A stretch of 64,000 bases of DNA from a virus, in IMG/VR virus record IMGVR_UViG_3300050020_000030, positions 1 to 64,000 of that record; one strand, given 5' to 3'. The stretch's first letter is position 1. Each line of letters opens with the position of its first letter. Position numbers and translations under genes: made by a program. Below the pieces are notes generated by a model. The model made no database searches. It saw only the letters and a list, made by a program, of their open reading frames with translations, and was not told where the DNA came from. Shown here piece by piece: positions 1 to 25,034 of this stretch.

Positions 1-29
1 AGAAATCACCATTTATTTCAACGGTTTAC

Positions 30-58
30 TTGACACGGCTCTTCGCTTGTGATACAAT
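30..58 (+). promoter_or_regulatory. sigma70-type promoter
   Basis: TTGACA(30-35)-N17-TACAAT(53-58), with TGTG before the -10 as in the other promoters of this genome. Confidence 0.75.
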
Positions 59-135
59 GTATTCAGGGTCGAAGAAACCCAATTTCCCAAATAGGGGTAC
101 CGGGATGACCAAATTTAAGGTACCATCCCCCGAAT

Positions 136-203
136 GTAATACACGTAATATGGAATCTCAGGATTAAGACAGTATTAAGACCATATCGGTAATACACGTA
201 ATA
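136..203. repeat. 15-bp direct repeat GTAATACACGTAATA (candidate operator)
   Basis: Identical copies at 136-150 and 189-203, between the promoter and ORF 210. Confidence 0.8.
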
Positions 204-209
204 CAAGGA

Positions 210-992
210 TTGGAATTCATGGCAAAGAGCGAGACAGGATTTATCTACTTTATTCGTACAGAATCTTCGGACAGGGTTAAGATAGGATATACCGAGGGAA
301 GTCCTAAGAGACGGTTGATCGAACTGTGTATAGGTTCTTCAGATAACTTAGTACTTGAGGGTGGTATACCCGACGGAACCTTCGGGCATTCGGAAAGGTC
401 GCTACATAAGTTTTTTGAGGAGTTTCATATAAGAGGAGAGTGGTTCCGAAGGGAAGGAAATCTAGCACTGTTTATTGATAAGTGCGTGGAAGGGGATTTA
501 GTATTAGCAGAAAAGCTATCGACGCCTGTCCCTATTCTAGAGACATTGAACCAAACAAAATTCAGTACTTTAAAATCCTTTAGAATCCCAAATGACCTTG
601 TCGAAAGAATGGAAAGGCAGGTAGAGAACACCGGGGAGACCGCTAGCAAGATTATCGTAGACTCCTTATATCAGTACTTCGATAATTCTGATAAGGAGGG
701 AAGATACGAGGCCCTTAATTCTAAAGCACCTGAGCCTTCACTTACTCTGGAGGGTATCCGGAGCATATTTGAGGAGTATCTATCTCCGAGACAGACCAAG
801 ACAAAGCCTTTTAAGGCTATCCCGGAGATTGGGGTCGTGGAAGATCAGTCTGAATCCGTTCCGGTCAGCATTCCGGCTGGACTAAGAAATATTCAAAGTC
901 AACAACATTCTGCTCGGTGCGCGTGCTTTATCTGTAAGCCGCCCAAGGATGCGGTGGCCGAGCCTAAGAAAAAGAAGTGGGGGAAGAAATGA
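210..992 (+). CDS. GIY-YIG (T5orf172-like) domain fused to a ribbon-helix-helix domain
   Basis: GFIYFI..VKIGYT..RL..L..E..LH..F..RGEWF at the N-terminus; KSFRIPNDLVERME..TASKIIVDSL RHH-like pattern; true start may be ATG 219. Confidence 0.7.
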   Translation: MEFMAKSETGFIYFIRTESSDRVKIGYTEGSPKRRLIELCIGSSDNLVLEGGIPDGTFGHSERSLHKFFEEFHIRGEWFRREGNLALFIDKCVEGDLVLAEKLSTPVPILETLNQTKFSTLKSFRIPNDLVERMERQVENTGETASKIIVDSLYQYFDNSDKEGRYEALNSKAPEPSLTLEGIRSIFEEYLSPRQTKTKPFKAIPEIGVVEDQSESVPVSIPAGLRNIQSQQHSARCACFICKPPKDAVAEPKKKKWGKK

Positions 993-1156
993 CAGAGAAA
1001 AAGTTGACTCTTTTGGAAATCGAGATGTTAGAAGCCCTAATTGAGGTTCTTCACGCATACGCGGATTATGGAAAAGCGGCACTCAGAGATAGCGACGAGT
1101 ATACCTCCCTTACTGCGGTACGTCGGGCTATCCGAAATGCGAGGGGGAAGAAATGA
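989..1156 (+). CDS. small hypothetical protein (55 aa, not in ORF track)
   Basis: ATGA overlaps with both neighbours; MTEKKLTLLE...NARGKK. Confidence 0.6.
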   Translation: MTEKKLTLLEIEMLEALIEVLHAYADYGKAALRDSDEYTSLTAVRRAIRNARGKK

Positions 1157-1509
1157 GCAAGTACCTTATACCTGACGGGATGCTCCAAGCTGGAAGAGGA
1201 GCGTATGACGCCTACGTGACAGCCGAAGAAGGTTCTCTCCGGATTCTAGAAGCTGGGGCAAAATGGTTGTCCGAAAATCCTATCGTGCCTACTCCCGAGC
1301 AGCTTCAAAGCATCGCAGATAAGAATAATCGGGGTAAGAGCTATCCCGAAGCTATTGAGATGTATGTGATCGGATTTCAGAAGATCATGCTCCTTAAGGC
1401 CGAGCCGGAGATGATCGGGGAAGAAACGGTCGGCCAGTTCTGCGCCCGTCATCAAACCATCGGTAAGGCTGTGATCGAAGCTTACCGGAGAGGAAAGGAA
1501 TCCAAATGA
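1153..1509 (+). CDS. hypothetical protein
   Basis: Translationally coupled ORF chain with purine-rich RBS. Confidence 0.65.
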   Translation: MSKYLIPDGMLQAGRGAYDAYVTAEEGSLRILEAGAKWLSENPIVPTPEQLQSIADKNNRGKSYPEAIEMYVIGFQKIMLLKAEPEMIGEETVGQFCARHQTIGKAVIEAYRRGKESK

Positions 1510-1769
1510 AGTATGCACCCGAAGAACACCGGCAGATGCAGGAAGCCCTCCGAATGCACGAAGGGAAGATCGTAGATACCGTCGTCCTAGATGCAGACGG
1601 CGAAGGAACAAAGTTCACCTTCTTTGGCGGGGGAACGTACTGGCATAGGAATGCTTTTACTGAGGCCGAGCAGCGGCTATACCGAGCGGAGGAAATTATC
1701 CGAAATATCCTACACGATGTTTCTGGAAGCTATGTAGCCGCCGAAGAATTTCTAGAGGAGGCTGAGTGA
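1506..1769 (+). CDS. hypothetical protein
   Basis: ATGA coupling, AAGGA RBS. Confidence 0.65.
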   Translation: MKYAPEEHRQMQEALRMHEGKIVDTVVLDADGEGTKFTFFGGGTYWHRNAFTEAEQRLYRAEEIIRNILHDVSGSYVAAEEFLEEAE

Positions 1770-1960
1770 GTATCCAGACCTTTGAATGTCCCAAGTGCGG
1801 GCACCGGCTAGAAAAGATCATCCGGAATTCGGAAAATGCCATTACAGTTACCAGAGTCTATTGTCCGGAATGTATCGCCCGGCTCCAGTTGGAAGAGATG
1901 AAACAAGTTCTGAGTGTCCCATCCCCGGCCATCTGGAATTGTTCTAAGGGGTCTCTATGA
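1766..1960 (+). CDS. small Zn-ribbon protein (FmdB-like)
   Basis: FECPKCGH...YCPEC, GGAGG RBS. Confidence 0.6.
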   Translation: MSIQTFECPKCGHRLEKIIRNSENAITVTRVYCPECIARLQLEEMKQVLSVPSPAIWNCSKGSL

Positions 1961-2142
1961 ATTGCCCCAGATGCTGGACCGATCTCGGTAATGATCCTAA
2001 CCGTCCGCACTATGAGCCGGGGATTGATTATGTTCCTTGCGAACCGTCCCCCGAGGAGCAGGCATTTAAGAGGGAACTGGACTACCGGATGTGGCTAGTT
2101 TCGGAAGCTGTACGGGATATTGAGAGGGGGCTTAAAAAATGA
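1957..2142 (+). CDS. small CxxC protein
   Basis: MNCPRCWTDL; coupled ORF. Confidence 0.6.
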   Translation: MNCPRCWTDLGNDPNRPHYEPGIDYVPCEPSPEEQAFKRELDYRMWLVSEAVRDIERGLKK

Positions 2143-2360
2143 ATTGTCCGGATTGTGGACGGGACCTAGAAAAGATTCCGGAGCAGTACCGGGATTTTGT
2201 ACACTCTATCCCCGGAAAATCGGACTGGTGCTTGCCTCCTGAAAAGTTCTCTCCGGAAGCAGAAGCTGCTCTAGATAAGCAGGCGGAAGCGTTAACAAAA
2301 CAATTTCGTAAGACCCTAGAGGAGGTACTAAATGGTAACATGGTCATATCGTTGGGATGA
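2139..2360 (+). CDS. small CxxC protein, N-terminus similar to ORF 1957
   Basis: MNCPDCGRDL; coupled ORF. Confidence 0.6.
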   Translation: MNCPDCGRDLEKIPEQYRDFVHSIPGKSDWCLPPEKFSPEAEAALDKQAEALTKQFRKTLEEVLNGNMVISLG

Positions 2361-2649
2361 ATCGAAGAAAGGATGGACCCTTCATCGTAGGGTTGACCAG
2401 AAATATCTGGCCCGGACAGGATTTACTTGGCGCGGGCCGAGTTTGTGGTATAATAAACCTATTGGGCCAATCACCCAGTTTAACCACATTCTTAGAGAGA
2501 CGTTGTTGACGAACTACTATTCAAATTCCTTTTTTAGTAAGTCACCGTTTCTTGGCGGGATGAGGATGTGTCTTCCAGTTCATTCGGGAAAGACGATCCA
2601 GTTCTTTACCTACGGCCTGAAGGAGAAAAATGAAACCCACAGTTCCTGA
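2332..2649 (+). CDS. hypothetical protein ending in a major-capsid-derived segment
   Basis: GGAGG RBS; PFLG..LPVHSGKTIQFFTYGL matches capsid exon 1 (15/26 identical). Confidence 0.7.
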   Translation: MVTWSYRWDESKKGWTLHRRVDQKYLARTGFTWRGPSLWYNKPIGPITQFNHILRETLLTNYYSNSFFSKSPFLGGMRMCLPVHSGKTIQFFTYGLKEKNETHSS

Positions 2650-2896
2650 AGTTCTACCGCTTGTCTGGGACCTATATGATAGAAGTCTGGACGGGTGCTG
2701 CCTGCATATCGTTCTGGACGACGGAAACGTAGATGATGCTTCTGTAAAGTTCTGTATGCGATACGCAGAGGAGATGGTCCACTGGGAGTGCCTATGTCTA
2801 GCTGAAACTTTGCTGCACATGAGTAAAACCCAAAGGACTCAGCTATCTAGCCGAGCCTACGAAAGGCAGCATCTGAGATACCACGGAGGAGCCTAA
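2630..2896 (+). CDS. hypothetical phage protein
   Basis: AGGAG RBS; GCCLHIVLDDGNV motif of a common small phage protein family. Confidence 0.7.
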   Translation: MKPTVPEVLPLVWDLYDRSLDGCCLHIVLDDGNVDDASVKFCMRYAEEMVHWECLCLAETLLHMSKTQRTQLSSRAYERQHLRYHGGA

Positions 2897-3339
2897 TGGA
2901 AGAAACACGAAACAGTAAGCACTGGCTGGTAAGCCCACCACCGCCCGGAATCCTGATCTCGGTGTTTGATACTCGGGATAATCGCGGGTGGCGCGTCATG
3001 TATCCGGAAGAAATTTCAGCCCGCCTCCCGGAGTATCTTTACTGGAGGGTCACTGGAGTAGGAGAAGAAATGGATCACCCAGCCGTGCCTAATGCCGCTG
3101 CGTACTATATTCTCAAGGTCAAGGACTACGGGGATGTGGTCTTCTACGGTACTGAAGTTGAGGCGGAAGACCTAAAGATGACTTGGGAACTCCGGAGCAA
3201 GAGTAGCGTCTTCCTCAAGAAGGCTACTAAGAGTGATCCTAAACACAAGAAGCTGGTATCGGACGAGATCGAAGCTATCCGGTTGGATCGGTCGTTTGGA
3301 ATCCAGATTCCCCCGGTTCAGACAGATGGGTGGTTCTAA
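2896..3339 (+). CDS. hypothetical protein
   Basis: GGAGG RBS, TAATG coupling. Confidence 0.7.
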   Translation: MEETRNSKHWLVSPPPPGILISVFDTRDNRGWRVMYPEEISARLPEYLYWRVTGVGEEMDHPAVPNAAAYYILKVKDYGDVVFYGTEVEAEDLKMTWELRSKSSVFLKKATKSDPKHKKLVSDEIEAIRLDRSFGIQIPPVQTDGWF

Positions 3340-3518
3340 TGCTTACTGAGGAAAGACTCAAAGAAATTTTGGATTACAAGGGCCGCAATCTTGGGGTGTT
3401 TCCCAAGTGTTGTCCTTGGTCGATAGCTACCTACAAAGAAATACTGTCTCTTGCCCAAGAGGTCTTCTGCTGGAGAAACATACAGGATTGGGAAGAGAAG
3501 TACGGGGGAACTAAATGA
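3339..3518 (+). CDS. hypothetical protein
   Basis: TAATG coupling suggests a start at 3339 within track ORF 3330. Confidence 0.5.
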   Translation: MLTEERLKEILDYKGRNLGVFPKCCPWSIATYKEILSLAQEVFCWRNIQDWEEKYGGTK

Positions 3519-3694
3519 AATTCGGTAAAAGTTTTCAAGACGGGGTACTAGAGAATCTCCTCTTCCACCAAGAGCAGGACGCCGTGGCCCACAACAAGAA
3601 GTGGGATAGGATAGCTTTCTGGGGATTTATCTTTGCATGGGCTATGCTTTTTGCTGGGGTAATATGGAGCGATCTAGCAAGAGGAGTCTTATGA
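3515..3694 (+). CDS. small membrane protein (59 aa, not in ORF track)
   Basis: ATGA coupling at both ends; hydrophobic IAFWGFIFAWAMLFAGVIW. Confidence 0.6.
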   Translation: MKFGKSFQDGVLENLLFHQEQDAVAHNKKWDRIAFWGFIFAWAMLFAGVIWSDLARGVL

Positions 3695-4023
3695 GTCAGT
3701 TACTGTTTTCTTTAACTTCGAAGGACTTTGTGTTTCAGACTTTTTGTACCGGGGGTAATGGAGGCCAGCATCGTAATGCTAAGCAGAACGGGGTTCGGTG
3801 TATACATCCTCCTTCTGGAGCGAGGGCGGAGCATAGGGACGGTCGGGACCAGCCTAAGAATAGACAGGAGGCATTTCGGAAGTGCTGCGAAACTCCGGAG
3901 TTCAAGGCTTGGCACCGGACGGAAGTTTTTCGGCGTCTTGGCAAGACAAAAGATATAGAACGGATTGTAGATGAGCAGATGGACTCTAAAAACATAAAGG
4001 TGGAATACTATGAGTCTTTATAA
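3691..4023 (+). CDS. RF-1 domain GGQ peptidyl-tRNA hydrolase (ArfB/YaeJ-like)
   Basis: TGGNGGQHRN..GVRCIHPPSG..RDQPKNRQEAF; GAGGAG RBS before ATG 3691; no codon-recognition domain. Confidence 0.85.
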   Translation: MSQLLFSLTSKDFVFQTFCTGGNGGQHRNAKQNGVRCIHPPSGARAEHRDGRDQPKNRQEAFRKCCETPEFKAWHRTEVFRRLGKTKDIERIVDEQMDSKNIKVEYYESL

Positions 4024-4267
4024 AGAAGGCATACACATGATGTTGCCAAGCGAGGACGAGTCTATCCGCAGGCAGGCCGCGCAGTATTTTCACTACATGT
4101 ACGCGGATCAGGAGACTCTTACCTTCGGGCAGGCTATTGAAGCCTTGGTAATCCTCAACAAGGCTCTTACTGAACGGCTCAGAGCGTATGAGAAGGCGGA
4201 ACTAGATCGGGCGATGCTCTCCGTTTCTCCCGTATACATCACGGATGATCCACTCGCAAAAAGATGA
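4010..4267 (+). CDS. hypothetical protein
   Basis: ORF chain; start 4010 or 4037. Confidence 0.55.
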   Translation: MSLYKEGIHMMLPSEDESIRRQAAQYFHYMYADQETLTFGQAIEALVILNKALTERLRAYEKAELDRAMLSVSPVYITDDPLAKR

Positions 4268-4494
4268 ATACTATAAAGCGACGTGTAACTCTAAGGGTTT
4301 GTATGTTTTGCGGGCACCGATGGCGGTACAAGAAATGCCTTCGGGTCCGGTGCCCGGAGTGCCGGAAGAACCAGACTGAAAAAATACAAAAAGTAAAAAA
4401 GATGACACCAGTTCCGGAAACTGGAAACCAGACGCTCGAAAATATTCGAAAAGAATTTCTCCAGAAATACCTTGACAAGGATAAGGACTTGTGA
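4264..4494 (+). CDS. basic Zn-ribbon protein
   Basis: CMFCGHRW...RCPECRK. Confidence 0.55.
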   Translation: MNTIKRRVTLRVCMFCGHRWRYKKCLRVRCPECRKNQTEKIQKVKKMTPVPETGNQTLENIRKEFLQKYLDKDKDL

Positions 4495-4500
4495 TATAAT
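4472..4500 (+). promoter_or_regulatory. sigma70-type promoter
   Basis: TTGACA-N17-TATAAT with TGTGA extension. Confidence 0.8.
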
Positions 4501-4522
4501 GTACTTAGACTGGAAAAAAGGG

Positions 4523-4753
4523 ATGATACTTCTAGTTCTCGGGATGGCTTCTGCACAGAGTTCCTTACCTCCTGAGACCTTTCAGTCTGAACTGTTTTTG
4601 TCCTCGGTACAATGTCATATCAGAGATGGCGTTGTCTATAACTGTAGGTTGAACAAGGATAAGAAGCTAGACGACGCTGTACAAGAGCTATACGATCTAT
4701 ATCAATCGAGTCTAGACTCCGGGGATGGTCCAGACGAAAGTGCGCCCGAATGA
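4523..4753 (+). CDS. small secreted protein, paralog of ORF 35338
   Basis: Hydrophobic leader ending ASA|QSS; C..C..LDD.V pattern shared with 35338; start uncertain. Confidence 0.55.
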   Translation: MILLVLGMASAQSSLPPETFQSELFLSSVQCHIRDGVVYNCRLNKDKKLDDAVQELYDLYQSSLDSGDGPDESAPE

Positions 4754-4965
4754 TTACCTGCCTTGAGTGCCTAACCCGAGAAGCCTGCCCCGGCTACAGC
4801 CACTGTAAGCAGTGTGAGGGCGCGGGTATTACAGGCGTCGTTCGGTTTGATACTACGGCGCTTTCCAGAGGACTTCGGGAGGAGTTTGATAAATTCGATA
4901 AGCGAATCTACGACCTTGAAGTAGCTCTTGGCCTACGTCAAGGCGTGAACAATAACGAGGGATAA
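4750..4965 (+). CDS. small Cys-rich protein
   Basis: CLEC..CKQC, coupled. Confidence 0.55.
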   Translation: MITCLECLTREACPGYSHCKQCEGAGITGVVRFDTTALSRGLREEFDKFDKRIYDLEVALGLRQGVNNNEG

Positions 4966-4974
4966 AAGGAGAAT

Positions 4975-5220
4975 ATGAAATATTCAAGAGAACAATACGA
5001 GCGGGCAGCAAAGTACTATGATACCTATTTCTCTAGGGGTGGTTTTTATTCTGATCCGGATAGGTGGGTAAAACTGTATGAAGAGGTTGGAAACGGGAGA
5101 AGTACTGACACAGAATTACAAGCAAAACTATTCGTAGAAGGTCTATACGGAGGACCTGCTTTCTCTCTTGGACACAGTAACATTGCTCGTACTGCGACTG
5201 GACTGGGGCGGGTTTTATAA
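4975..5220 (+). CDS. hypothetical protein carrying an 11-aa portal-identical peptide
   Basis: AAGGAG RBS; GHSNIARTATG identical to the portal. Confidence 0.7.
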   Translation: MKYSREQYERAAKYYDTYFSRGGFYSDPDRWVKLYEEVGNGRSTDTELQAKLFVEGLYGGPAFSLGHSNIARTATGLGRVL

Positions 5221-5227
5221 TTTCCAA

Positions 5228-5446
5228 ATGAGGGATAAAATGATATCTTGTGTTTTCAACTTTCCCCTACCCGAAACTCAAGAGGCTATCGACTTCTTGG
5301 TCGTTGAGACTCGTCATGCCGTTCAAAAAGCCCAAGTGGACAACCCGGAGCTTCTAAAGCCCGGAGTGTTTTTTGTAACGATCTCCGCAGGAGATGTTGG
5401 TGTAACCACGGAGGAAGATAAATTTGAGTACCACCCGGAGGGATAG
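5228..5446 (+). CDS. hypothetical protein
   Basis: 3' part of track ORF 5168; start uncertain (5228 or 5240). Confidence 0.45.
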   Translation: MRDKMISCVFNFPLPETQEAIDFLVVETRHAVQKAQVDNPELLKPGVFFVTISAGDVGVTTEEDKFEYHPEG

Positions 5447-5826
5447 TGACTCAGGTAAGAGGGTTTAAGCCTTCGGCAAAGTACCAAAGGCTATACAATA
5501 GGTACAACAAATTGTACTTCTCGGGGGAGCTACCACCATGTATAGTGGGTGCTGCGCCTTTGCTAAAGATTGAATACGTCGAGAACAAAGTTTTTGGAAA
5601 GTCTAAAAAAGTGTCAGGAGGGGAATATGCCTTGCTATGCTGGGAAGATGATCAGTCCTATATTATCCTAGATAAAGGAACTACTGTTTTTCATATAGTG
5701 ATCGCAAAGCAGTCGGTTCTTCACGAGCAAATTCATCTATACTTGGGAACACGAGGCCACGGTAAAGAATTCAAGGACCAGATCAGAAGGATCGCTGCTC
5801 TAGGCGCGTTGGATACCCTAATCTAG
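5446..5826 (+). CDS. SprT-like zinc metalloprotease
   Basis: YNKLYFSGELP...VLHEQIH...GHGKEF. Confidence 0.8.
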   Translation: MTQVRGFKPSAKYQRLYNRYNKLYFSGELPPCIVGAAPLLKIEYVENKVFGKSKKVSGGEYALLCWEDDQSYIILDKGTTVFHIVIAKQSVLHEQIHLYLGTRGHGKEFKDQIRRIAALGALDTLI

Positions 5827-5841
5827 AAGGAAAAGGAAACT

Positions 5842-6219
5842 ATGTATACACTCAGTTTGGTACACAATACGGCCTTCCCCGAACCGGGAGAATTTTTCAA
5901 CAACACTAAGAATGGCGGGGTTCTAACAATGTCTCGTCTTCGTCGAGAAGTCTTGCGGGCGAGTGTCGAAGGTCTGGAAACTTTCGAGGATAAAAAGTAT
6001 CGGGGCTGGATTCATCCCTATGTCCTGCACGACGTTCTTAATGATGCCTCCTTTAACGGATTAACAGATATTATAGCACGCGGAGAGAAGAAAGACAAAG
6101 CATTTGTATCAATAACTCTTGCGGGAGTTGAGTTTATTTCAACGACAGACGTTCGGGTCTCTACCTTTATCTTCGGTAAAAACTCTGATCCCCTCGATCT
6201 TAAACTTATCTACATCTAA
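5842..6219 (+). CDS. stand-alone fragment homologous to the major capsid protein (putative A-domain)
   Basis: 25/50 ungapped identity to capsid exon 2, including NDASFNGLTDI; AAGGA RBS. Confidence 0.8.
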   Translation: MYTLSLVHNTAFPEPGEFFNNTKNGGVLTMSRLRREVLRASVEGLETFEDKKYRGWIHPYVLHDVLNDASFNGLTDIIARGEKKDKAFVSITLAGVEFISTTDVRVSTFIFGKNSDPLDLKLIYI

Positions 6220-6279
6220 AGTAACCAAAATATAGGGTACTAAAGATTTATTTGAAATGGTTACTATTCTGGCCGGATT

Positions 6280-6290
6280 TGTGGTATAAT
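6280..6290 (+). promoter_or_regulatory. extended -10 promoter
   Basis: TGTGGTATAAT. Confidence 0.6.
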
Positions 6291-6315
6291 AGTACTAGTG
6301 ACAAAAATGTTTATA

Positions 6316-6620
6316 GGGGGAGAAGCCTCCCGTAGAAGGCTCAAATCCTCCCCCATCGATTTAAGTTACCGGAAATATCCGGCTACCCTGCCTCGGGGGT
6401 TTGTACTGAGGCACTTTTTGATTCAGGTAATACCTGACCACGCGGTTGTTGGAACCGCATCTGAGCAGATGGCGCTGGAGTAACATACTACCCAGGTATC
6501 TGCTCAACAATTTGATTCCGGAAAATGGAATCTGCCAAGCCGCACGTCCGGAGCAACTCCGGGGGATCGGTTGCATTGCAACGGAGGAGGTCGCTCCTCC
6601 TCTATCTCTTTTCGAAAAGG
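6316..6620 (+). ncRNA. candidate structured RNA or long 5' leader
   Basis: About 9-10 consecutive stems, e.g. TGCCTCGG/CTGAGGCA, TCAGG/CCTGA, GCGGTT/AACCGC, TGAGCAGAT/ATCTGCTCA, CCGGAG/CTCCGG, GAGGAG/CTCCTC. Confidence 0.55.
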
Positions 6621-6630
6621 AATAAATCTT

Positions 6631-7266
6631 ATGGCCGGTATTCTCACTTCTCAATCTATCAAGAATCTTCCCACAGTGCTCCTCACTACCGCTACCGAGA
6701 CCGCTGTTCTGGTCCCCGCTTCTGGTCTTTACTCTGGCTACCCTTCGCCCATTATGCCCGCAGGTTCCGGCTTCGTCCTGATCTCCGATCCGGATGCGCA
6801 GTCGAGTAACCCCACGGCGGCTACGCCCACGTATAGCAACGCTTCATTGGATGGTCAGCCTTTCATCCTTCGTGCAGTGTTCAACGTGAATACGGCGGGT
6901 TCATACACCTTCGTTCCCAAGATTTATCAGGTTCCCGCTTCGGTGGTTGTGAATAATGCTTCGAGCACTCTCGGGTCTTCGACGCTGACGAACGATCACC
7001 TGATCGTTACCGGCGCTACCCTGACTATCAGCGGTAAGGGCCAGTACGTTCTGGAAACCCAGCTTCTGTGGGATTCAGTCTCGGGCAAGCTGAACGGCGT
7101 GTTCGATTCGATCACGGATGCTACCTACACGGGTCCTGCTGCTAATACCGCGCAGCTTACCACGGTCGGTGCGCTTGATTTGAATTTTGTGCTGAGTGTT
7201 ACTCTAGGAACGGCTAATGCCGCCAATTCTTATACGCTCAAAGAATTTTCTCTCAACCGCATCTGA
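6631..7266 (+). CDS. putative virion decoration/structural protein, paralog of ORF 27726
   Basis: AAGGA RBS before ATG 6631; S/T/A-rich beta protein; shares ATET, GxPFxxR, GQ.L.T..WDSV, EFS motifs with 27726. Confidence 0.65.
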   Translation: MAGILTSQSIKNLPTVLLTTATETAVLVPASGLYSGYPSPIMPAGSGFVLISDPDAQSSNPTAATPTYSNASLDGQPFILRAVFNVNTAGSYTFVPKIYQVPASVVVNNASSTLGSSTLTNDHLIVTGATLTISGKGQYVLETQLLWDSVSGKLNGVFDSITDATYTGPAANTAQLTTVGALDLNFVLSVTLGTANAANSYTLKEFSLNRI

Positions 7267-7278
7267 TGAACTAACCAC

Positions 7279-7298
7279 GGGCCTACTTCGGTAGGCCC
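7279..7298 (+). other. cUUCGg hairpin without U-tract (mRNA stability or processing element)
   Basis: GGGCCTAC-TTCG-GTAGGCCC. Confidence 0.6.
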
Positions 7299-7308
7299 AG
7301 AGGTCTCT

Positions 7309-7506
7309 ATGGAGTTCTTTCTAATCATTGCTTTGCTTATTGCTCTTGCCCTGTTGTGGCTAGATCGCGCCTCCACTGTTGCAGAACTCAAGACTCTCGC
7401 AGCGGGAGTGGTTATCGATATTGAAAATATTGCGGCTAAGGCCGGTAAGGGTAGTCTCAAGATTGAACTCTCTGCCGCTGTGGAGAAACTTAAAGACAAA
7501 CTCTGA
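7309..7506 (+). CDS. small membrane protein
   Basis: N-terminal TM helix, GAGG RBS. Confidence 0.6.
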   Translation: MEFFLIIALLIALALLWLDRASTVAELKTLAAGVVIDIENIAAKAGKGSLKIELSAAVEKLKDKL

Positions 7507-7727
7507 TGGGTAATTTTTACCGGCTGTACCTAGATTCCGTTAAGCCGGTAAGGTGGGCTGTAGATACCGGCGATCCTTTGTCCTCTAAACACTTTGAAAT
7601 CGTTATACTTAGTTCTCCGGGATCGACCAACTCTGATCCGGAACCGGGGCGTATTCCTAAAGTCTGGCTAGAATTTTATGATGCCGAACTCCGGGAAGAA
7701 GAAGGGATCGGCTACATCGAGGATTGA
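7506..7727 (+). CDS. hypothetical protein
   Basis: TGATG coupling. Confidence 0.6.
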   Translation: MGNFYRLYLDSVKPVRWAVDTGDPLSSKHFEIVILSSPGSTNSDPEPGRIPKVWLEFYDAELREEEGIGYIED

Positions 7728-8485
7728 TGGCTCGGAAGATTAAGTCGTATTGGTGGACGAGGGTTCCAAACTTTGGAGATGGACTGTCCCCCCTTCTTCT
7801 TTCTAGGTTCGCCAATCTGACCCCTGAATGGAGTTCGGTTGAAGAGGCTTCTGTAGTCTCTATCGGTTCTATTCTGGAGCATATCCCCCCGAATTGGGGT
7901 GGTTTTATTCTAGGATCAGGTAAACTCAGAGAAATTTCAGTTCTTAAGTTCGATCCCAAAGATGTAAAGATTCTCTCCCTTCGGGGGCCGTTATCTGCAA
8001 AAGGGATTCCCGGTGATTATTCTCTCGGTGATCCTGGAGTCTTAGCTAACGAACTAGTCGGACCGCAGGAGAAGCAGTGGGACTTGGGAATAGTTCCTCA
8101 CTGGCAGGATGATGAACTTGCCGACAGGTTCTTAAAACTTATTCCCAGTAAGTTCTCTTGCCGGGTAATTAGCCCTTCATCCGACCCTCTGACTGTAGTT
8201 CGGGAGATAGGGGCTTGTAAGAGAATTGTAACATCTTCCTTACATGGGATGATTGTAGCAGACTCTTTTGGGGGAATCCCTCGCCGGGTTGAGTCCTGCG
8301 ATAAGATGAATGTGGACGGTGGGCTATTCAAGTTTAAAGACTATAGCGCCTCCATAAAAACAGAGTTTGAAATTGGAAAAATGATTGAGCCGTCACGGTT
8401 CCGAGTGGAAGATATTAAATTCAATATCTACGACGCTTACCGCCAACTCGGAGGTTACCGTGCGCAGAATCTACGAGACCTGTAA
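7727..8485 (+). CDS. polysaccharide pyruvyl transferase family protein (ExoV-like)
   Basis: NFGD, IGSIL, GSG, LRGPLS, GDPG, GIVPH, TSSLHGMIVADSFG. Confidence 0.85.
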   Translation: MARKIKSYWWTRVPNFGDGLSPLLLSRFANLTPEWSSVEEASVVSIGSILEHIPPNWGGFILGSGKLREISVLKFDPKDVKILSLRGPLSAKGIPGDYSLGDPGVLANELVGPQEKQWDLGIVPHWQDDELADRFLKLIPSKFSCRVISPSSDPLTVVREIGACKRIVTSSLHGMIVADSFGGIPRRVESCDKMNVDGGLFKFKDYSASIKTEFEIGKMIEPSRFRVEDIKFNIYDAYRQLGGYRAQNLRDL

Positions 8486-9380
8486 AAGGGTAATTTCCTT
8501 CTACCTATCAAAGTTGTTTCATAGGCGGGGATACGGGATCAGTATCTTGGTTCCTTTATGTTTATCAGATGATGGACCCCGAGCCAGAAACTGGGCTTGG
8601 TTACAAGAGTACTGGAGAGAAAACCTTCCCGGTGCTGAAATTGTAGTTGGAGAAGACGCGGACGTTAAAAAAGGTCTTGCCTTCTCCAAATCCGTCGCTG
8701 TGAATAATGCGGTGAGTAAGGCCCTCGGAGACATCTTTGTAGTTGTAGATGCCGATGGGTACATTTCGGTTGAGTCAGTCTTGCTCTGTGCTAAAGAGAT
8801 TCGAACCGAAAGAAAAAGAGGGTACCGGGTCTGGTTCGTTCCTTACCGCAAATTTTTCCGCTTAACGGAAGAAGCTACGAAGAGGGTTTTAGAATCTGAT
8901 CCAAAAAATCCCCACAAGTTTTCTATTCCTCCCTCCGATGACGAAATTCTAAATAAAGGATTTTATAAAGATAGTCCCGAGGCTTCTATCGGGCACTGGT
9001 ACGGGGCCTTAATTCAGATTATGTCCCGCGAAGCCTTCGAGGAAGTCGGAGGATGGGATTCCAGATTTCGTGGATGGGGCGGGGAAGATCATGCGGCGAT
9101 GCGGGCTATGGATACGCTATACGGCCCTCATAAAACTCTACCAAGTCCTGTTCTACATTTATGGCATCCTATTCAATCTTCTACGATAGGGTCTGCCAAA
9201 AACAGAGTGTGGAACAATCAGACTTCTGGAAGTGTTAACGACGCCCTCTCCGGAAGATATTATTGGTCCCAAGGCAATATCCGGCGTATGCGGAGTCTAG
9301 TAGATGAATTTCGGTTTCTCAAAGTAAAAAAGATACAAGAAGTTCTTCCCGATCCTGTTAATGCAAACTACAGTCGTTAA
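8460..9380 (+). CDS. GT-A glycosyltransferase (GT2/GT7-like)
   Basis: FSKSVAVN, DAD motif, GGWDSRFRGWGGED, HLWH; GGAGG RBS before GTG 8460. Confidence 0.85.
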   Translation: MRRIYETCKRVISFYLSKLFHRRGYGISILVPLCLSDDGPRARNWAWLQEYWRENLPGAEIVVGEDADVKKGLAFSKSVAVNNAVSKALGDIFVVVDADGYISVESVLLCAKEIRTERKRGYRVWFVPYRKFFRLTEEATKRVLESDPKNPHKFSIPPSDDEILNKGFYKDSPEASIGHWYGALIQIMSREAFEEVGGWDSRFRGWGGEDHAAMRAMDTLYGPHKTLPSPVLHLWHPIQSSTIGSAKNRVWNNQTSGSVNDALSGRYYWSQGNIRRMRSLVDEFRFLKVKKIQEVLPDPVNANYSR

Positions 9381-9394
9381 GTTAAAGAGGTTCT

Positions 9395-9754
9395 ATGGCA
9401 GCGGCAACAGCCTTCACGATCACAATTTCCACAATCTCATCCGGCCCCTTCAGCTTGGCGACACTCCTAAGTACGGGCGTTGCTCCTTCGGGCTGTACCC
9501 TCGGGGTTGGGGCCGTTATCACGCCTTACACCGCTAAACCTATTGCCTATGTCAGCTTCCAGAATGTGAGCGGCGGAACCCTGTACCTCGGGGATTCTAC
9601 TCTTACTGGAAGTACTAACATGGGCATTTCTATTCCTACAGGGGGAGTAGAGCAGATTGTTCCCGGTCGTGGCGGCTCGGCGTGGGCCAACTTTATTTAC
9701 TTCAATGCTAGCGCAGCAACGGTAGTTAATATCACTGTGATCTACGGAACCTAG
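9395..9754 (+). CDS. putative small virion structural protein
   Basis: S/T/G-rich beta protein, FQNVSGGTLYLG; GAGG RBS. Confidence 0.55.
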   Translation: MAAATAFTITISTISSGPFSLATLLSTGVAPSGCTLGVGAVITPYTAKPIAYVSFQNVSGGTLYLGDSTLTGSTNMGISIPTGGVEQIVPGRGGSAWANFIYFNASAATVVNITVIYGT

Positions 9755-9761
9755 AGGACGG

Positions 9762-9875
9762 ATGAAAAAGCTGCTTCTGTTCCTGTTCTTTAGTACCGTT
9801 TGCTTTGCACAGTCGAGCATCACCGCATCCAACACGGTAGGTATCTTTCGTAGGCGCTGCAACGCCCTCCCGTAA
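9762..9875 (+). CDS. short signal-peptide ORF, possibly truncated or frameshifted (37 aa)
   Basis: GAGGA RBS; MKKLLLFLFFSTVCFA|QSS. Confidence 0.5.
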   Translation: MKKLLLFLFFSTVCFAQSSITASNTVGIFRRRCNALP

Positions 9876-9909
9876 AACAAAAATCTTAAAAAAGTGAAAT
9901 AGGTGAACC

Positions 9910-10230
9910 GTGGCAGATTCCGAGAAGTCCCTCAAGAAACCCGAGAAGTCCAAGAAGAAAAGTTCTTCCAAGAAAAAGCGTCATAAAATCCGGTCCATAC
10001 ATATTCAACCTACTGATAATAATGGTTTTATCGCAACTCATGAACACGAACCAGACGAGGATGACGAGACAGGCCAAGCCCCTCCTTCTACTATTCACGC
10101 TCTTGGTAACCTCGACCAACTTCACCAGCACTTGGATGACACGCTCGGCGGCGCACCGGGCGGCGGACAAGCTCCCCCGGCTGCTCAAGAGGCCCCTCCA
10201 GCGGCTGCTGGCGGAATGGCAGGAATGTAA
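9910..10230 (+). CDS. hypothetical protein with Lys-rich N-terminus
   Basis: AGGTG RBS; His-rich central motif. Confidence 0.7.
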   Translation: MADSEKSLKKPEKSKKKSSSKKKRHKIRSIHIQPTDNNGFIATHEHEPDEDDETGQAPPSTIHALGNLDQLHQHLDDTLGGAPGGGQAPPAAQEAPPAAAGGMAGM

Positions 10231-10364
10231 TGCCTTTAGCTAAAGGTAAAAGCAACAAGACGGTCGGTAAAAATATTAAGACAGAAATTCTGTCAGGCCG
10301 TCCGCAGAAACAGGCAGTTGCGATTGCGCTCAATACAGCGGGTCGCGGAAGGAAAAAGAAATGA
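10230..10364 (+). CDS. small basic phage protein (MPLxKGKS family; not in ORF track)
   Basis: MPLAKGKSNKTVGKNIKTE..GRPQKQAVAIAL. Confidence 0.75.
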   Translation: MPLAKGKSNKTVGKNIKTEILSGRPQKQAVAIALNTAGRGRKKK

Positions 10365-10474
10365 AGAAGCCTGAGAAGCCCTCGAAGGGCAACAAGCCTG
10401 AAATCAAATTGAAAATCAAGGCAAAAGGTAGTCCCGAAGCTGTCAAGGCTGCGGTAAAGAAGATCGTTAAGTAG
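10361..10474 (+). CDS. small Lys-rich protein (37 aa)
   Basis: ATGA coupling; ends just before terL. Confidence 0.55.
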   Translation: MKKPEKPSKGNKPEIKLKIKAKGSPEAVKAAVKKIVK

Positions 10475-10480
10475 GGACCA

Positions 10481-12472
10481 GTGGACCTAGACGAATTTTA
10501 CAGCAAGCACGGAGAAAATCCAGATTGGTCCTCGGTAGACGCCCTAGACTTTTACCTTCTCGTAGATAGTAAGAGGGCAGAGTTCCAAGCTCTTGCGGAC
10601 GAAGGAATCCTCAATCAGCACTATCTCTGGGAGCCTATCCGCCGTAGGACAATTACTGATCTGTACTTTCTGTCCCTCTGCTGCTGGGACTCAATGCCAG
10701 ATGGCGGAATAGAAGTTCCACTATCCGAGAACGTAATGAACCTAGAAAATCACAAAGAGATGATTTCTATGTTCGTAAAGAAAGACCCTGATCTAAGCTT
10801 ATCGAAACAAAAGGGTTTCAAGACTAGACTTATATTATACCCCCGTGGTACCCAGAAGTCGAGTTGGGATTATCTTGATTTGGTTCAGTGGATTCTTCTA
10901 GATCACACCGTTAGGATTCTGGTACTTACCGCCGCTGACGATATGGCGGGCGACACTGTAGATTTAATCAAGGGCTATTTCTTTATAAGAGAGTCCTTTG
11001 TAAGCCTCATGAATCTTTTCTGGCCGGAACACTGCCTACTAGAGAAGGATTCAGGCAAGTCGGGTGACTTTACTACCCCGATGTGGACCAGAAAGCAGAT
11101 CACCCGCAAAGAGCCTACCATCATGGCTCGTGGTATTACCGCCACTATAAGTGGATATCACTTTGAGATCATAGCGGGAGACGATGCAGTTTCCGACAGA
11201 AACTCTTTGACCACGGAACAGTGCGCTGCTGTAAAGAAAAGATACTATCTCACTCGTAAAACTCTTCGCTCTTTCGGTTTCACCAATCTCGTCGGGACTC
11301 GCTACCATGAGGACGATCTTTATGGGGATATAATCTCCAAGACGCAGGTAGGAAATTTCAAGGCAGAGAGCATCAATCTCTGTACAAAGAAAGTTACAAA
11401 CGTCGAAAAGGGTATGGATATCCTGATCGGCGCGGCGATGCAGATCAAGTTAGACTGTTCCGCCGAACTAGCTAAGTTCAATATCCCTCGTCGAGATTGG
11501 TTTAGAAAAGCAGGACGGCTGGGTGTAGAACTAGTCATGCCGGGTAACCCCCACCTGACTTATGATAAGTGGCTAGGCGACTACGAAGATGATCCCGAGA
11601 CCTTCGAGGCGCAGATGAACCAGAATTGCTTGAGCGCAGTTGCCTCCGTCTTTACTGAAGAGCTTCTCCTCAAAGCAGTTATACACTGGAACGAACTTCC
11701 AGTTATGGGTAGACGCTCAATTGCGTTTGACCTTAACGGCGGTAAAGGTAAAAAAGATAATGACTTCGTTGTAGGTAATTGCTGTTTATGGGACGACAAG
11801 GGCATAGGCTATATTATTGATCTAGTTAGGGATGTATTTCCTAATCCCACAGCAATAGCCAAAGCCGTAGTAACATTTTGTACCAAACACCACCCGGACA
11901 TCCTGAGTATTGAAGACGCTCTCGGTTCTAGAATGCTTCAGCCCACTATAGAGGCAGAAGCAGATAAGTATAGAAATCCTAGAACCGGGGAACCAGACGA
12001 GTTCGTGAAAAATCTGGTAAGGCGCATACACTGGAGTCCGATAGACACTAGAGAAGACTCTAAACGAAATAGAATCAACTCCCTCCAACCTTTACTGATG
12101 TATGGCCGGATGCGATTCGTGAACTACCTCCCGTACATGGATCAACTCAAAACTGAGTTTGTCCGGAAGATTACACGCGGGAGTAAAAATGATATTCCAG
12201 ATTCGATAAGTCTCCAAATTCCTTTCATGCCTGTTCCAGCCGCTACTCCTCAGTCGCAAGAAGACAAAGACAAACGGGAGCAAGAACTGAGAAAGCAGCA
12301 GCAGGAAGTCCGAGACAAATCAGCTTGGAATCAAATGTTCGAAGACAGGAATAATATCTGGTATGAAAATCCTGCTCCTCCACAGCAGCAAGAGTACTTG
12401 TTAGATGATTATCAGCAGCCGTCTCACGAGGAGGGACTCGATAACATCCTCGGAGCGGGTTTAATAGGATAA
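10481..12472 (+). CDS. terL: terminase large subunit
   Basis: Walker A PRGTQKS, Walker B IIAGDD, VGTRYH, nuclease AFD...DF..G, IE, NDIPD; upstream of portal. Confidence 0.9.
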   Translation: MDLDEFYSKHGENPDWSSVDALDFYLLVDSKRAEFQALADEGILNQHYLWEPIRRRTITDLYFLSLCCWDSMPDGGIEVPLSENVMNLENHKEMISMFVKKDPDLSLSKQKGFKTRLILYPRGTQKSSWDYLDLVQWILLDHTVRILVLTAADDMAGDTVDLIKGYFFIRESFVSLMNLFWPEHCLLEKDSGKSGDFTTPMWTRKQITRKEPTIMARGITATISGYHFEIIAGDDAVSDRNSLTTEQCAAVKKRYYLTRKTLRSFGFTNLVGTRYHEDDLYGDIISKTQVGNFKAESINLCTKKVTNVEKGMDILIGAAMQIKLDCSAELAKFNIPRRDWFRKAGRLGVELVMPGNPHLTYDKWLGDYEDDPETFEAQMNQNCLSAVASVFTEELLLKAVIHWNELPVMGRRSIAFDLNGGKGKKDNDFVVGNCCLWDDKGIGYIIDLVRDVFPNPTAIAKAVVTFCTKHHPDILSIEDALGSRMLQPTIEAEADKYRNPRTGEPDEFVKNLVRRIHWSPIDTREDSKRNRINSLQPLLMYGRMRFVNYLPYMDQLKTEFVRKITRGSKNDIPDSISLQIPFMPVPAATPQSQEDKDKREQELRKQQQEVRDKSAWNQMFEDRNNIWYENPAPPQQQEYLLDDYQQPSHEEGLDNILGAGLIG

Positions 12473-13611: not shown

Positions 13612-15693
13612 ATGTCTCAGATCGATCCAGCAAACACGCTAGCAGATACACTAACTGAAGAGCAGATCGCCCAAATTCTCCAAACAGGGAAGTGGGCACC
13701 TGACCCTGCTCTTACTCTAGTGCTCCGGGATACCGATAGTGCCGAAACCGCGAAGGCGGCTAAGCAGTGGATCGCGGGGTGGAATTCTGCTAGCATTCTG
13801 TACCAGTCTACGACTACTCCTAAATTTTGGGAAGGCACACAAGTAGAACGGGCTAATGTTCCCTTCTACACCGTGGCTAAAGTTGTGAACTCATTGACGC
13901 CTCAAATTGTCAATGGGCTTTTTTATGACGATCCTCCTTTCATTTTTCAGCCTCGTCCGGGGACAAGTCAAGATACTGTAGAAGCCGTAGCAGATATCAT
14001 TGGATACCAACTCAAAGAAATTGGGTTCAAAGAACAAGTCCGTCTCGGAGTAATGAACGTAGTTCTTTACGGAACGAACATCTGGAAGTGGGGATGGGAC
14101 AGTAAGAAGATTTCTCGTACATACTTCGCCTTGGACGAAAAGAAGGATACTATTCCTTCGGAAATTCCGGGCCAGCCTGATGTAGAATTCCACGATCCGA
14201 ACGCCCCACTAGTTGAAAGAACCGAAGAAATCCGCGTTGAGCAGCCCCGGTTCGAAAATATCACGTCTATCCGAGACGTTTTGGTTGATCCTACGCTTCG
14301 GGTACCCGATATTACCAAGGGAAAGTTTGTAATCCACAGGCTGTATCTCACTTATAATGAGCTAATTGCCCTCAAAGATACCCCCGGATACGACATTCCA
14401 AGCGAGCAAGAAGTCATTTCTTGGTTCACACCCCCGGAAGAAACTGCCCTTCCGGATATGGATGAACGTACCGGAATCAGCCCAATGTGGGATATGCGGG
14501 CCGATCCGAGGTGGGAAAAGGCTACAATTGATCCATTTAATCAGCCTTTAGAGGTTTTAGAGCGTTGGGACAAAGAAAAAGTCATAATCGTAGTCCAGCG
14601 CAAGAAAGTTATCTGTAACGGAAAGAATCCTTACTCCGAAATTCCCTTCCTTTCCTGTAATTTTTGGGATGTACCCGGAGCGTTTTACGGCCTCGGCGTG
14701 GGTCGGACGGTTGGTTCTGAGCAGCGTTTGCAGATGGGAATCGTCAATACTTGGCTTGATTCCGTCGCTCTCTCCCTCTCTGGTGTATACGTTAGGAAGC
14801 GTACCAATAGTATTCCTACCCAGAGTATCCGGATTTCACCGGGCAGGGTTGTTGAACTAGAGAATGTAGAAGACCTGAAGCCTCTCGCCCGTCCTCCGGC
14901 TGTCCCGGAAGCGGCGGAGCACCTCGGAATGTCCGCGAGTCGTGTAGAGCAGAACTCTGGTGCCGGTGAAATATCTTCACAGGGTCAAGCGGGGTCTTCA
15001 GGACATAGTAACATCGCTCGTACCGCGACCGGAGCGGCGGGGCTTCTCCAAGGGCAAGGTATTGGAATCTCAGACCTCGTTGAAAAGTTTTCGTGCAACG
15101 TATTCCTTCCCTTCCTTTACCGCGTGATGGAGATGAACAGAAATCTCCTCCCGGCAGAGACAATTAAAAGAATCTTGAATGATGAACTCCAGAAGGCTTA
15201 TCTCGCAGAAGGCACAGGAACTATTGAAGACATCCGTAAGGCCCGGATGGAGATCGAGATTCAGGCCGGGGCTAAACTCGCAGATCGTAGGGCGGTAAGC
15301 GCGAGTCTTCCCCTCCTAACCTCGTATCTCGGACAGCAGTTTGTTGTTCAAAACCTCGCTACGCAGGGACTCAAAGTAGATCAGAAGATGGTCGTTAAGA
15401 CGATCTTTGAAGCTGCTGGATTCAAGAGCTTCTATAGTCTGATTGTTCCAATGACCGATCAGGAAAAACAGCAGTCGCAAGCTAACTCTCCCGCCGCTAT
15501 GAACCAATCCAAGATTCAGGCAGAATCGCAGATGGCTCTCCAGAAATATCAGGCGCAGTCCCAGCTTAGGGATCAAGAGAATATAGCTAAGGCAGGTATG
15601 GAAGTACTCCGGAAAAATCTCGAAGCCACTAGTACCCCCGAGGCGATGACTGGTCAGGTTGGGGCGAACGAGGGATTCGGATCAAATTTATAA
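13612..15693 (+). CDS. portal protein (P22-like)
   Basis: 693 aa after terL; YGTNIWK, VLVDP, NPY..IPF, FYGLG, ISPG, RTATG, Gln-rich barrel helix. Confidence 0.88.
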   Translation: MSQIDPANTLADTLTEEQIAQILQTGKWAPDPALTLVLRDTDSAETAKAAKQWIAGWNSASILYQSTTTPKFWEGTQVERANVPFYTVAKVVNSLTPQIVNGLFYDDPPFIFQPRPGTSQDTVEAVADIIGYQLKEIGFKEQVRLGVMNVVLYGTNIWKWGWDSKKISRTYFALDEKKDTIPSEIPGQPDVEFHDPNAPLVERTEEIRVEQPRFENITSIRDVLVDPTLRVPDITKGKFVIHRLYLTYNELIALKDTPGYDIPSEQEVISWFTPPEETALPDMDERTGISPMWDMRADPRWEKATIDPFNQPLEVLERWDKEKVIIVVQRKKVICNGKNPYSEIPFLSCNFWDVPGAFYGLGVGRTVGSEQRLQMGIVNTWLDSVALSLSGVYVRKRTNSIPTQSIRISPGRVVELENVEDLKPLARPPAVPEAAEHLGMSASRVEQNSGAGEISSQGQAGSSGHSNIARTATGAAGLLQGQGIGISDLVEKFSCNVFLPFLYRVMEMNRNLLPAETIKRILNDELQKAYLAEGTGTIEDIRKARMEIEIQAGAKLADRRAVSASLPLLTSYLGQQFVVQNLATQGLKVDQKMVVKTIFEAAGFKSFYSLIVPMTDQEKQQSQANSPAAMNQSKIQAESQMALQKYQAQSQLRDQENIAKAGMEVLRKNLEATSTPEAMTGQVGANEGFGSNL

Positions 15694-22866: not shown

Positions 22867-23136
22867 ATGGCCTATACTCCCGCAGTAAATACAGTTACCA
22901 GTGGTAACTTTCCTAACGCTTTGGCCGTTTACTATGAGCGTAAAGCAATTCCAAACCTTAAAGCAAGCACTCCGTTTCTGGGGGCAACAAAGCAGTGGCC
23001 TTTGCCGAGGCACTCCGGTAACGTGATTCAGTTCTTCTCCTATAACCTCTTGGGCGCGAATGTCTCTCAGACCACCGAGGGTTTCGTGGGTTCTCCTGTT
23101 CCCGAGAGCGCAGTCAAGATTCAGGCGACAATCGGT
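22867..23136 (+). CDS. major capsid protein (N4-gp56-like), exon 1
   Basis: YYERKA..LPRHSGNVIQF..TEG..ATIG; joins in frame to QYADY. Confidence 0.9.
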
Positions 23137-24052: not shown

Positions 24053-24676
24053 CAATACGCTGATTACACCAATAGCTCTGACCTGTTCTTGGATACGGCG
24101 ATTGACGACAAGGGCGCACTTAGCTCTTTGGCCGAGGAAATGAACTATCGCCTCGCCCTCACCCTGAATCTGTTGGTCTCCACGGCTGCGGATTCTCTGA
24201 ATGGCATCGACGGTTCTGTGAATCAGCAGTTGGCAGTCGGTACCTATCTTACCGCGTCGAACCTGCGTACCATCGCTCAGCAGCTTGAGTCGGTGAACGT
24301 TCGTCCGTTCGAAGCCAACACCTACGCCGGGGTTATCAATCCTCTGGTTGTGCATGATATCTATAATGACGCCAGCTTCAACGGCCTCACGGATATCATG
24401 AAGCGCCAGTCCGATTCTTCGAAGAAGTTGTTCGAAGGTCTGGATCGTGACGCCCCTCTGGAGTTCGCGGGTATTAAGTTCAAGAGCACCACAACCGCAT
24501 CGGCTGTGACCATCTCTTCGAACATTTACTATCCCACGTACATCTTCGGTGACGATGCTCTTCTAAGTATCTTCCTCGGTCCTAATCCGGCTGACAAGAA
24601 CAAGAAGAACTACTCACTGAATATCCAGATGGCTCCCGAAGGCGGCTCGGTCTCCGACCCGGCTCGCTTGATTGGT
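24053..24676 (+). CDS. major capsid protein, exon 2
   Basis: QYADYTNSSDL..YAGVINP..HDI..FAGIKF..YPTYIFG..SDP. Confidence 0.9.
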
Positions 24677-24938: not shown

Positions 24939-25034
24939 GGGTGGATTTCATATAACTGTAAGTTCGTGGTCACGCCTCCGCCCGGAGTAGTTATGAGGGC
25001 ACGCAAGCTCCTGAGCCAGACGTCTTCAAGCTAA
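24939..25034 (+). CDS. major capsid protein, exon 3 (missed by ORF track)
   Basis: GWISYNCKFVVTPPPGVVMRARKLLSQTSSS* restores the DP...GW capsid C-terminal motif; total 329 aa. Confidence 0.85.
   Translation, partial: GWISYNCKFVVTPPPGVVMRARKLLSQTSSS

Follow-up and report, generated by a model that had tools for sequence, protein, structure and literature searches.

Small accessory genes of a peat-soil phage encode copies of its capsid modules and a possible portal fragment: candidate virion-protein mimics

Why would a phage carry, well apart from its head genes, small open reading frames (ORFs) that repeat pieces of its own virion proteins? This question is raised by the left end of IMG/VR virus record IMGVR_UViG_3300050020_000030, a single contig of 88,639 bp from a peat-soil phage, of which the first 64 kb (64,000 nucleotides) are the window analyzed here. 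An initial annotation, made from the sequence alone, had proposed that small ORFs of the accessory region, 10-20 kb away from the structural genes, contain pieces of the capsid N-terminal region (ORF 2332), the capsid central domain (ORF 5842) and the portal (ORF 4975). When the accessory ORFs were compared with the rest of the genome, both as proteins and in six frames, these three ORFs gave the only matches, and the separation of about 10-20 kb was correct. We found ORF 5842 to be predicted as a free-standing axial (A) domain of the HK97 capsid fold and ORF 2332 to end in a copy of the capsid N-terminal region, both as intact members of conserved families, while the portal match of ORF 4975 is borderline.

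In order to separate similarity from chance, 20 accessory ORFs were compared with 31 virion-module proteins in 150 residue shuffles, and the best bit score of each replicate was recorded. Shuffled best scores had a mean of 23.5 bits, a 95th percentile of 26.6 and a maximum of 30.8, against observed scores of 60.1 bits for ORF 5842, 32.7 for ORF 2332 and 30.4 for ORF 4975. The matches of ORFs 5842 and 2332 lie clearly beyond chance. That of ORF 4975 to the portal is borderline, because one of the 150 shuffles reached its score and about 0.6 such matches are expected by chance (all-versus-all E value of 6e-4 multiplied by 1047 query frames). Two weaker candidates had also been proposed, without names. 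The only other candidates seen, ORF 4264 (26.6 bits) and ORF 1957 (23.5 bits), compared with a 1743-aa protein, fell within the shuffle noise, and the proposal is not confirmed, since no ORF beyond the three exceeds the shuffle range.

Over 107 aa, ORF 5842 is 36% identical to exon 2 of the gene for the major capsid protein (MCP) (24239-24559), with E values of 1e-14 to 1e-17. The similarity covers only MCP residues ~129-260, leaving out the N-arm, E-loop and spine helix/P-domain of a complete HK97 fold, a single chain of at least about 300 aa; ORF 5842 encodes the A-domain only, with two loops shorter than those of the MCP. Structure prediction of the fragment alone, one of the checks suggested by the initial annotation, returned an HK97-fold A-domain: the AlphaFold2 (AF2) model had a predicted local distance difference test score (pLDDT) of 78.8 and a predicted template modeling score (pTM) of 0.73. 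When this model was compared with 48,161 PDB representatives (VIA-align), about 45 of the best 50 matches were HK97-fold capsid or encapsulin chains (Z 3.4-6.2), and the part matched was always the C-terminal half of the capsid chain, e.g., residues 254-381 of HK97 (1ohg). Since the Z values are modest, the fold call is drawn from the uniformity of the match list. Moreover, the neighbors of the model in BFVD and the ESM Atlas are capsid families too.

ORF 5842 is not an isolated case. Among 1.84 billion representative proteins, searched exhaustively with HMMER, the hits were either MCPs and MCP exons or about 11 proteins of 119-134 aa, which align with ORF 5842 end to end at 30-46% identity and are here called family A1. 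The family is marked by an N-terminal strand MKTL.L.HG, a Y[RK]GWIHP motif and a C-terminal FG.NSDP.D motif, all three present in ORF 5842. The A1 profile matches the MCPs of relatives with E values of 1e-17 to 1e-5, and its hhalign comparison with the MCP alignment A3 gave a probability of 98.7% (E 1.8e-16, 85 columns), leaving the first and last of these motifs unaligned to the MCP. In the maximum-likelihood tree, the small A1 proteins, including ORF 5842, form a single clade (support 100/99); a long branch sets this clade apart from every MCP, and its internal branches are long as well. By this topology, family A1 is old, fast-evolving and of single origin. On the other side, tblastn of ORF 5842 and P0002 against 50,697 GenBank phages gave no match; IMG/VR scans with P0002, P0004 and ORF 2332 gave no relatives, and with ORF 5842 MCP genes only; nothing was found in a scan of JGI metagenomes with alignment A2 or in scans of GTDB genomes with P0010 and P0011; and Pfam, PHROGs and PADLOC held no family for ORFs 2332, 4975 and 5842.

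The capsid-like part of ORF 2332 is shorter. Its last 38 aa are 42% identical to MCP exon 1 (22963-23076; E 1.5e-5), and its C-terminal ~45 aa carry the motifs YY..PFL..LP.HSG.TIQFFTY. Four further intact homologues were identified (P0029; L044, 1468-1788; L014, 1554-1817; L045, 233-493), of which P0029 is 77% identical to ORF 2332 and L044 51% identical over the best matching segment. In all five small ORFs the module is C-terminal, with a short tail before the stop codon, and aligns with MCP residues ~20-60; in alignment A4, which combines these five proteins with four MCPs, nine columns are invariant (P, L, P, G, IQFF, Y). The module is joined to two types of N-terminal half, a W-rich one in the window, P0029 and L044, and a lysine-rich coiled coil in L014 and L045, and the substitutions in P0029 lie mostly upstream of it. 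The ratio of nonsynonymous to synonymous substitution rates (dN/dS) was measurable only for the pair L014-L045, deeper pairs being saturated at synonymous sites, and amounted to 0.40 overall, 0.24 in the N-terminal part and 0.68, from few changes, in the C-terminal module. From the topology of HK97 and the order of strands in a low-confidence model of the MCP, the module would correspond to the end of the N-arm and the first E-loop strand; the AF2 model in question (from alignment A3) had a pLDDT of 40, too poor for mapping, and its order of strands and helices was used as a hint. A similar 'EIKFFTY' tail in the intron-encoded LAGLIDADG ORF of L003 was too short to call.

Regarding the age of these copies, the MCP of its own phage (36% identity) is no nearer to ORF 5842 than the clade's other MCPs are (33-41%). 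Over the whole alignment of ORF 5842 with the MCP, third codon positions differ at 45 of 60 sites, which is saturation, first positions at 28 of 60 and second positions at 26 of 60. Furthermore, the block NDASFNGLTDI, common to ORF 5842 and the phage's own MCP motif variant, contains a Ser codon-family switch (TCC/AGC). The saturated third positions, the Ser switch and the lack of closeness to the own MCP therefore point to an ancient offshoot of a capsid A-domain and not to a recent copy. The earlier observation that the DNA differs almost only at synonymous sites holds inside blocks of identical peptide, where it is true by definition, and fails across the whole alignment. Recent capture from a related phage, which the initial annotation had offered to account for that pattern, is rejected for both capsid copies because their synonymous sites are saturated. 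Recent gene conversion from the MCP gene into the small genes was also discarded, given the Ser switch in the block common to ORF 5842 and the MCP and given an ORF 2332-type module in L045 without high DNA identity to the MCPs compared; base composition gave no sign of recent foreign acquisition, both GC content and GC content at third codon positions (GC3) being unremarkable. A decayed second structural module was likewise set aside: in their order (capsid N-terminus, portal, capsid center) the pieces are not collinear with the head module, and each lies in an intact ORF of its own. From its sequence record, ORF 5842 appears to be kept under purifying selection.

ORF 4975 stands on different ground. 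Its last 22 aa are 68% identical to portal residues 458-479, including an exact 11-mer, and the similarity has a sharp boundary. The DNA of this core (5170-5202 against 15001-15033) is identical at 29 of 33 positions, and all four differences are synonymous and in third positions, from which the borderline match gains some support. The portal motif GHSN[IL]ARTA[TA]G, a G/S/A-rich loop, is near-invariant in the portals of 13 relatives, and the DNA of ORF 4975 is slightly nearer to its own portal (29/33) than these portals are to one another (22-27/33). The only homologue found, P0030, is a variant 95% identical to ORF 4975 that retains the block. In this context, the portal piece may be functional, or it may be a younger recombination remnant.

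The distribution of the ORF 5842 gene is patchy. The closest relatives (portal 81% identical; L014 and L001) have a different sequence between the SprT-like gene and a conserved 231-aa gene. Applied to three relatives over their full records, one of which is estimated to be 98% complete, the A1 profile found the MCP only, and self-comparison of the whole records of two relatives revealed no virion-fragment ORFs. In addition, one contig of the peat run X15 skips the 393-nt cassette of ORF 5842, with a joint at a 5-nt microhomology (ATCTA) between the ends of the SprT-like gene and ORF 5842; a cassette-free variant in peat is a tentative conclusion, drawn from this single contig with 25 nt on its shorter side. 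Taken from these comparisons, the ORF 5842 gene appears to be dispensable.

All three ORFs bear signals for translation. Each has a good Shine-Dalgarno site (GGAGG 7 nt upstream of the ATG in ORF 2332, AGGAG in ORF 4975), and ORF 4975 ends in a clean stop; it does not overlap the next gene, because the next start is most likely at 5240. Sigma-70-like promoters precede these ORFs in their tightly packed array, and one of the promoters, a perfect match, would drive ORFs 4750 to 5842 (Table 1). An extended -10 motif, TGTGrTATAAT, of which this promoter has one copy, occurs in nine copies, all on the plus strand, against 0.7 expected (positions 2444, 4490, 6280, 15713, 23196, 25100, 28509, 36838 and 46524), three of them directly upstream of homing-endonuclease ORFs, and is probably the promoter consensus of the phage. 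From this arrangement we infer early expression of the three ORFs.

Table 1. Coordinates of the small ORFs, their parent genes and associated features in the window
Feature	Position	Strand	Evidence or remark
ORF 2332, 105 aa; C-terminal ~45 aa (about 2515-2646) copies the MCP N-arm and, putatively, the first E-loop strand	2332..2649	+	tblastn, blastp
Perfect sigma-70-type promoter match, TTGACA-17 nt-TATAAT with TG	4472..4500	+	Upstream of ORFs 4750, 4975, 5240, 5446 and 5842
ORF 4975, 81 aa; ends with the exact portal 11-mer GHSNIARTATG (5170-5202)	4975..5220	+	
393-nt stretch (ORF 5842 cassette), left out by a single contig of peat run X15	5821..6213		Contig joint 5820->6214
ORF 5842, 125 aa, predicted free-standing HK97-fold A-domain protein, member of family A1	5842..6219	+	BLASTP, HMMER, hhalign, AF2, tree
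Large terminase subunit	10481-12472		
Portal gene; loop motif at 15001-15033	13612..15693	+	Pfam SU10_portal, E 1.4e-21
MCP exon 1; similarity to ORF 2332 at 22963-23076	22867..23136	+	tblastn with intron-less L006 MCP, 87% identity
Intron 1, two-domain LAGLIDADG ORF	23213-24043		
MCP exon 2; similarity to ORF 5842 at 24239-24559	24053..24676	+	85% identity to L006 MCP
Intron 2, Rfam group I core	24677-24866		
MCP exon 3, C-terminal 31 aa and stop	24939..25034	+	tblastn with L006 MCP

Two group I introns interrupt the MCP gene, and where these introns begin, exons 1 and 2 each continue in frame to ...ELAA-stop. A scaffold-like protein of 383 aa is encoded upstream. The related peat phages have introns at many positions of their MCP loci (L003, 7681-9283; L032-L043), several of them with LAGLIDADG ORFs, and the intron sites include one directly after the YYER motif and one near IQF/YTY. 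The capsid gene is an intron hot spot in this phage clade. A free-standing GIY-YIG gene (25205-25957) follows the MCP gene and belongs to a set of three paralogous GIY-YIG homing-endonuclease genes, the others located at 36856-37746 and, on the minus strand, at 81527-82327 of the genome (mutual E values of 1e-11 to 1e-25).

The window recurs with hardly any change in 19 DNA runs of peat metagenomes, which belong to 16 studies (2018-2025). Among GenBank phages no close relative was found, the sole DNA match being the gene of a release factor 1 (RF-1) domain protein (ArfB-like; 3637-4023), with 71% DNA identity to Tunturiibacter phage Tunturi_3; this resemblance gives a hint of an Acidobacteriota host. 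Coding is on the plus strand throughout positions 1-54467. The array at 1-6219 consists of tightly packed small ORFs with stop/start overlaps and good ribosome-binding sites, and it also encodes a T5orf172/MUG113 protein, zinc ribbons, the RF-1 domain protein and a SprT-like protein, being a mosaic. Within it, single-nucleotide polymorphisms of run X15 (4822-4881) fall mostly in third codon positions, which suggests that ORF 4750-4965 is a real gene under purifying selection. The 350 nt after ORF 5842 (6220-6570) are non-coding, with a promoter motif and hairpins, and are polymorphic in the population, as contigs of run X15 show joints 6272->6362 and 6414->6511. Two pairs of paralogues were also observed. 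ORF 6571-7266 and ORF 27726-28436, absent from the initial annotation, are related over their full length (30% identity over 159 aa, E 7e-8), and both are conserved in relatives, one to the left of the terminase and the other downstream of the MCP; the tailspike-like large proteins at 16528-21099 and 31659-34259 have a common N-terminal domain of ~99 aa (45% identity, E 2e-17).

What, then, might these small proteins do? As intact members of conserved families, ORFs 5842 and 2332 are selected accessory proteins and not debris; only the portal piece of ORF 4975 could be the recombination remnant that the initial annotation had named as the refuting outcome. We tentatively favor the reading that they are domesticated virion-protein modules acting, as small dispensable accessory proteins, by competitive molecular mimicry, although this is far from assured. 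Each protein would display a capsid or portal surface and thereby occupy whatever binds that surface. As partner, a host sensor of capsid or portal, for which the small protein would be a decoy or antagonist, is slightly preferred over partners in capsid assembly, be they those of a relative infecting the same cell or the phage's own. Each of the three copies takes in the motif that is best conserved in its parent protein. A further-reaching version, in which virion-epitope mimics made early would silence host capsid and portal sensors until assembly is under way, as a general anti-defense strategy, we consider distinctly improbable. Several points weigh against mimicry. The recurrence of conserved motifs may be a detection bias, because such stretches stay detectable after long divergence, and a free A-domain could have been put to a use that has nothing to do with capsids. 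For ORF 4975 no distant homologues were found, and its portal match is short and statistically borderline; the dN/dS of 0.68 in the C-terminal module of L014-L045 is, on few changes, weak evidence. From the sole metatranscriptome run came two contigs of 151 nt at 100% identity, which both fall within the RF-1 gene (3703-4010), a coverage (within 1-12000) that says nothing either way about the three ORFs.

Alternatively, the modules could dock or target small proteins onto or into the capsid of the phage itself, where they would be decoration, cement or internal proteins packaged with it and would antagonize nothing. The extreme C-terminal position of the modules in ORFs 2332 and 4975 resembles that of scaffold and encapsulin cargo-loading peptides, ORF 6571-7266 close by is conserved and paralogous to a gene of the virion module, and decoration proteins are typically dispensable and patchy, which fits the relatives without ORF 5842 and the X15 contig; however, the genes lie outside the head module, in a small-gene array behind host-type promoters, and most close relatives make the same capsid without these proteins. 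We regard such a role as unlikely. No more probable in our opinion is a recruitment, long ago, for a function unrelated to capsid and portal, with fold constraint as the only source of similarity. It would account for the fast evolution of family A1, for its long branch from the MCPs and for its termini not common to the MCP, and at similar Z values the A-domain fold is also matched by small alpha+beta proteins, PF0899 and chorismate mutase among them. Nevertheless, it would then be a strange accident to find three different virion pieces in a single array of 4 kb, the module of ORF 2332 consists of an extended arm and one strand rather than a fold, with little meaning outside a capsid lattice, and the block NDASFNGLTDI of ORF 5842 is identical to the own MCP variant. 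Finally, the pieces could be neutral recombination debris or chance similarities, possibly from double-strand-break repair near a capsid gene rich in introns and homing endonucleases. The heavy invasion of the MCP gene by group I introns and homing endonucleases, here and in relatives, and the mosaic nature of the array would be in line with this origin, as would a portal match of 11-22 aa with a sharp boundary, a borderline score in the controls and no distant homologues; but no fragment lies next to an intron or endonuclease remnant, and for ORFs 5842 and 2332 debris is excluded by intact families conserved over saturated synonymous divergence. Overall we hold debris to be very unlikely, though less so for ORF 4975 alone.

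The significance of these genes depends on which of these explanations is true. Capsid and portal proteins are now known as main triggers of bacterial immunity, and satellites use capsid homologues to hijack assembly; if the small proteins bind sensors or assembly partners through the copied surface, as competitive mimicry would have it, they would represent a new class of factors in anti-defense or inter-phage competition and would pinpoint the relevant epitopes. In addition, the free A-domain family offers a simple soluble handle on the evolution of HK97-fold domains. If the proteins are inert or functionally unrelated, the finding shrinks to an unusual case of domain domestication. In the literature searched, we found no phage genes that encode only a capsid or portal piece and are kept by selection in accessory regions, nor a natural phage gene for a free capsid piece that blocks a sensor.

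Among known systems, the premise of the decoy idea comes from capsid-sensing immunity, whose sensors read short or folded parts of the capsid. In T4, the Gol region of gp23 switches on the Lit protease of e14, and CapRel-SJ46, staphylococcal Thoeris and the cyclic-oligonucleotide-based antiphage signaling system (CBASS) sense the capsid (PMC13728456). There, the trigger lies within the full MCP, whereas here the pieces are encoded as free proteins. Ccm of the cos-type phage-inducible chromosomal islands (SaPIbov5, PDB 7rwz) is a full-length HK97-fold capsid homologue that redirects capsid size and is encoded by a satellite without a full virion module of its own. It is similar in being a capsid-derived protein that interferes with the assembly of another element, and 7rwz is among the fold matches of ORF 5842 (Z 3.6); in contrast, the present genes encode fragments only, in an 88.6-kb phage with its own terminase, portal and MCP.

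Short terminal tags that deliver proteins to HK97-fold shells are also comparable. The capsid targeting sequence of T4 is an N-terminal peptide of ~10 aa removed by the prohead protease, and the cargo-loading peptides of encapsulins are C-terminal, as are the modules of ORFs 2332 and 4975. Unlike the modules here, such tags do not reproduce the shell protein, and in T4 the tag stands at the N-terminus and is cut off, while our modules are C-terminal or, in ORF 5842, make up the whole protein. In comparison with the N4-gp56/Phage_capsid_4 MCPs (the own MCP and relatives such as P0007 and L006 6184-7170), from which they differ as small proteins without spine helix, P-domain and full E-loop, with their own termini, a separate clade, a place outside the head module and apparent dispensability, ORF 5842 is nonetheless homologous to the A-domain in both sequence and predicted fold, and the ORF 2332 module to the N-arm and, putatively, the first E-loop strand.

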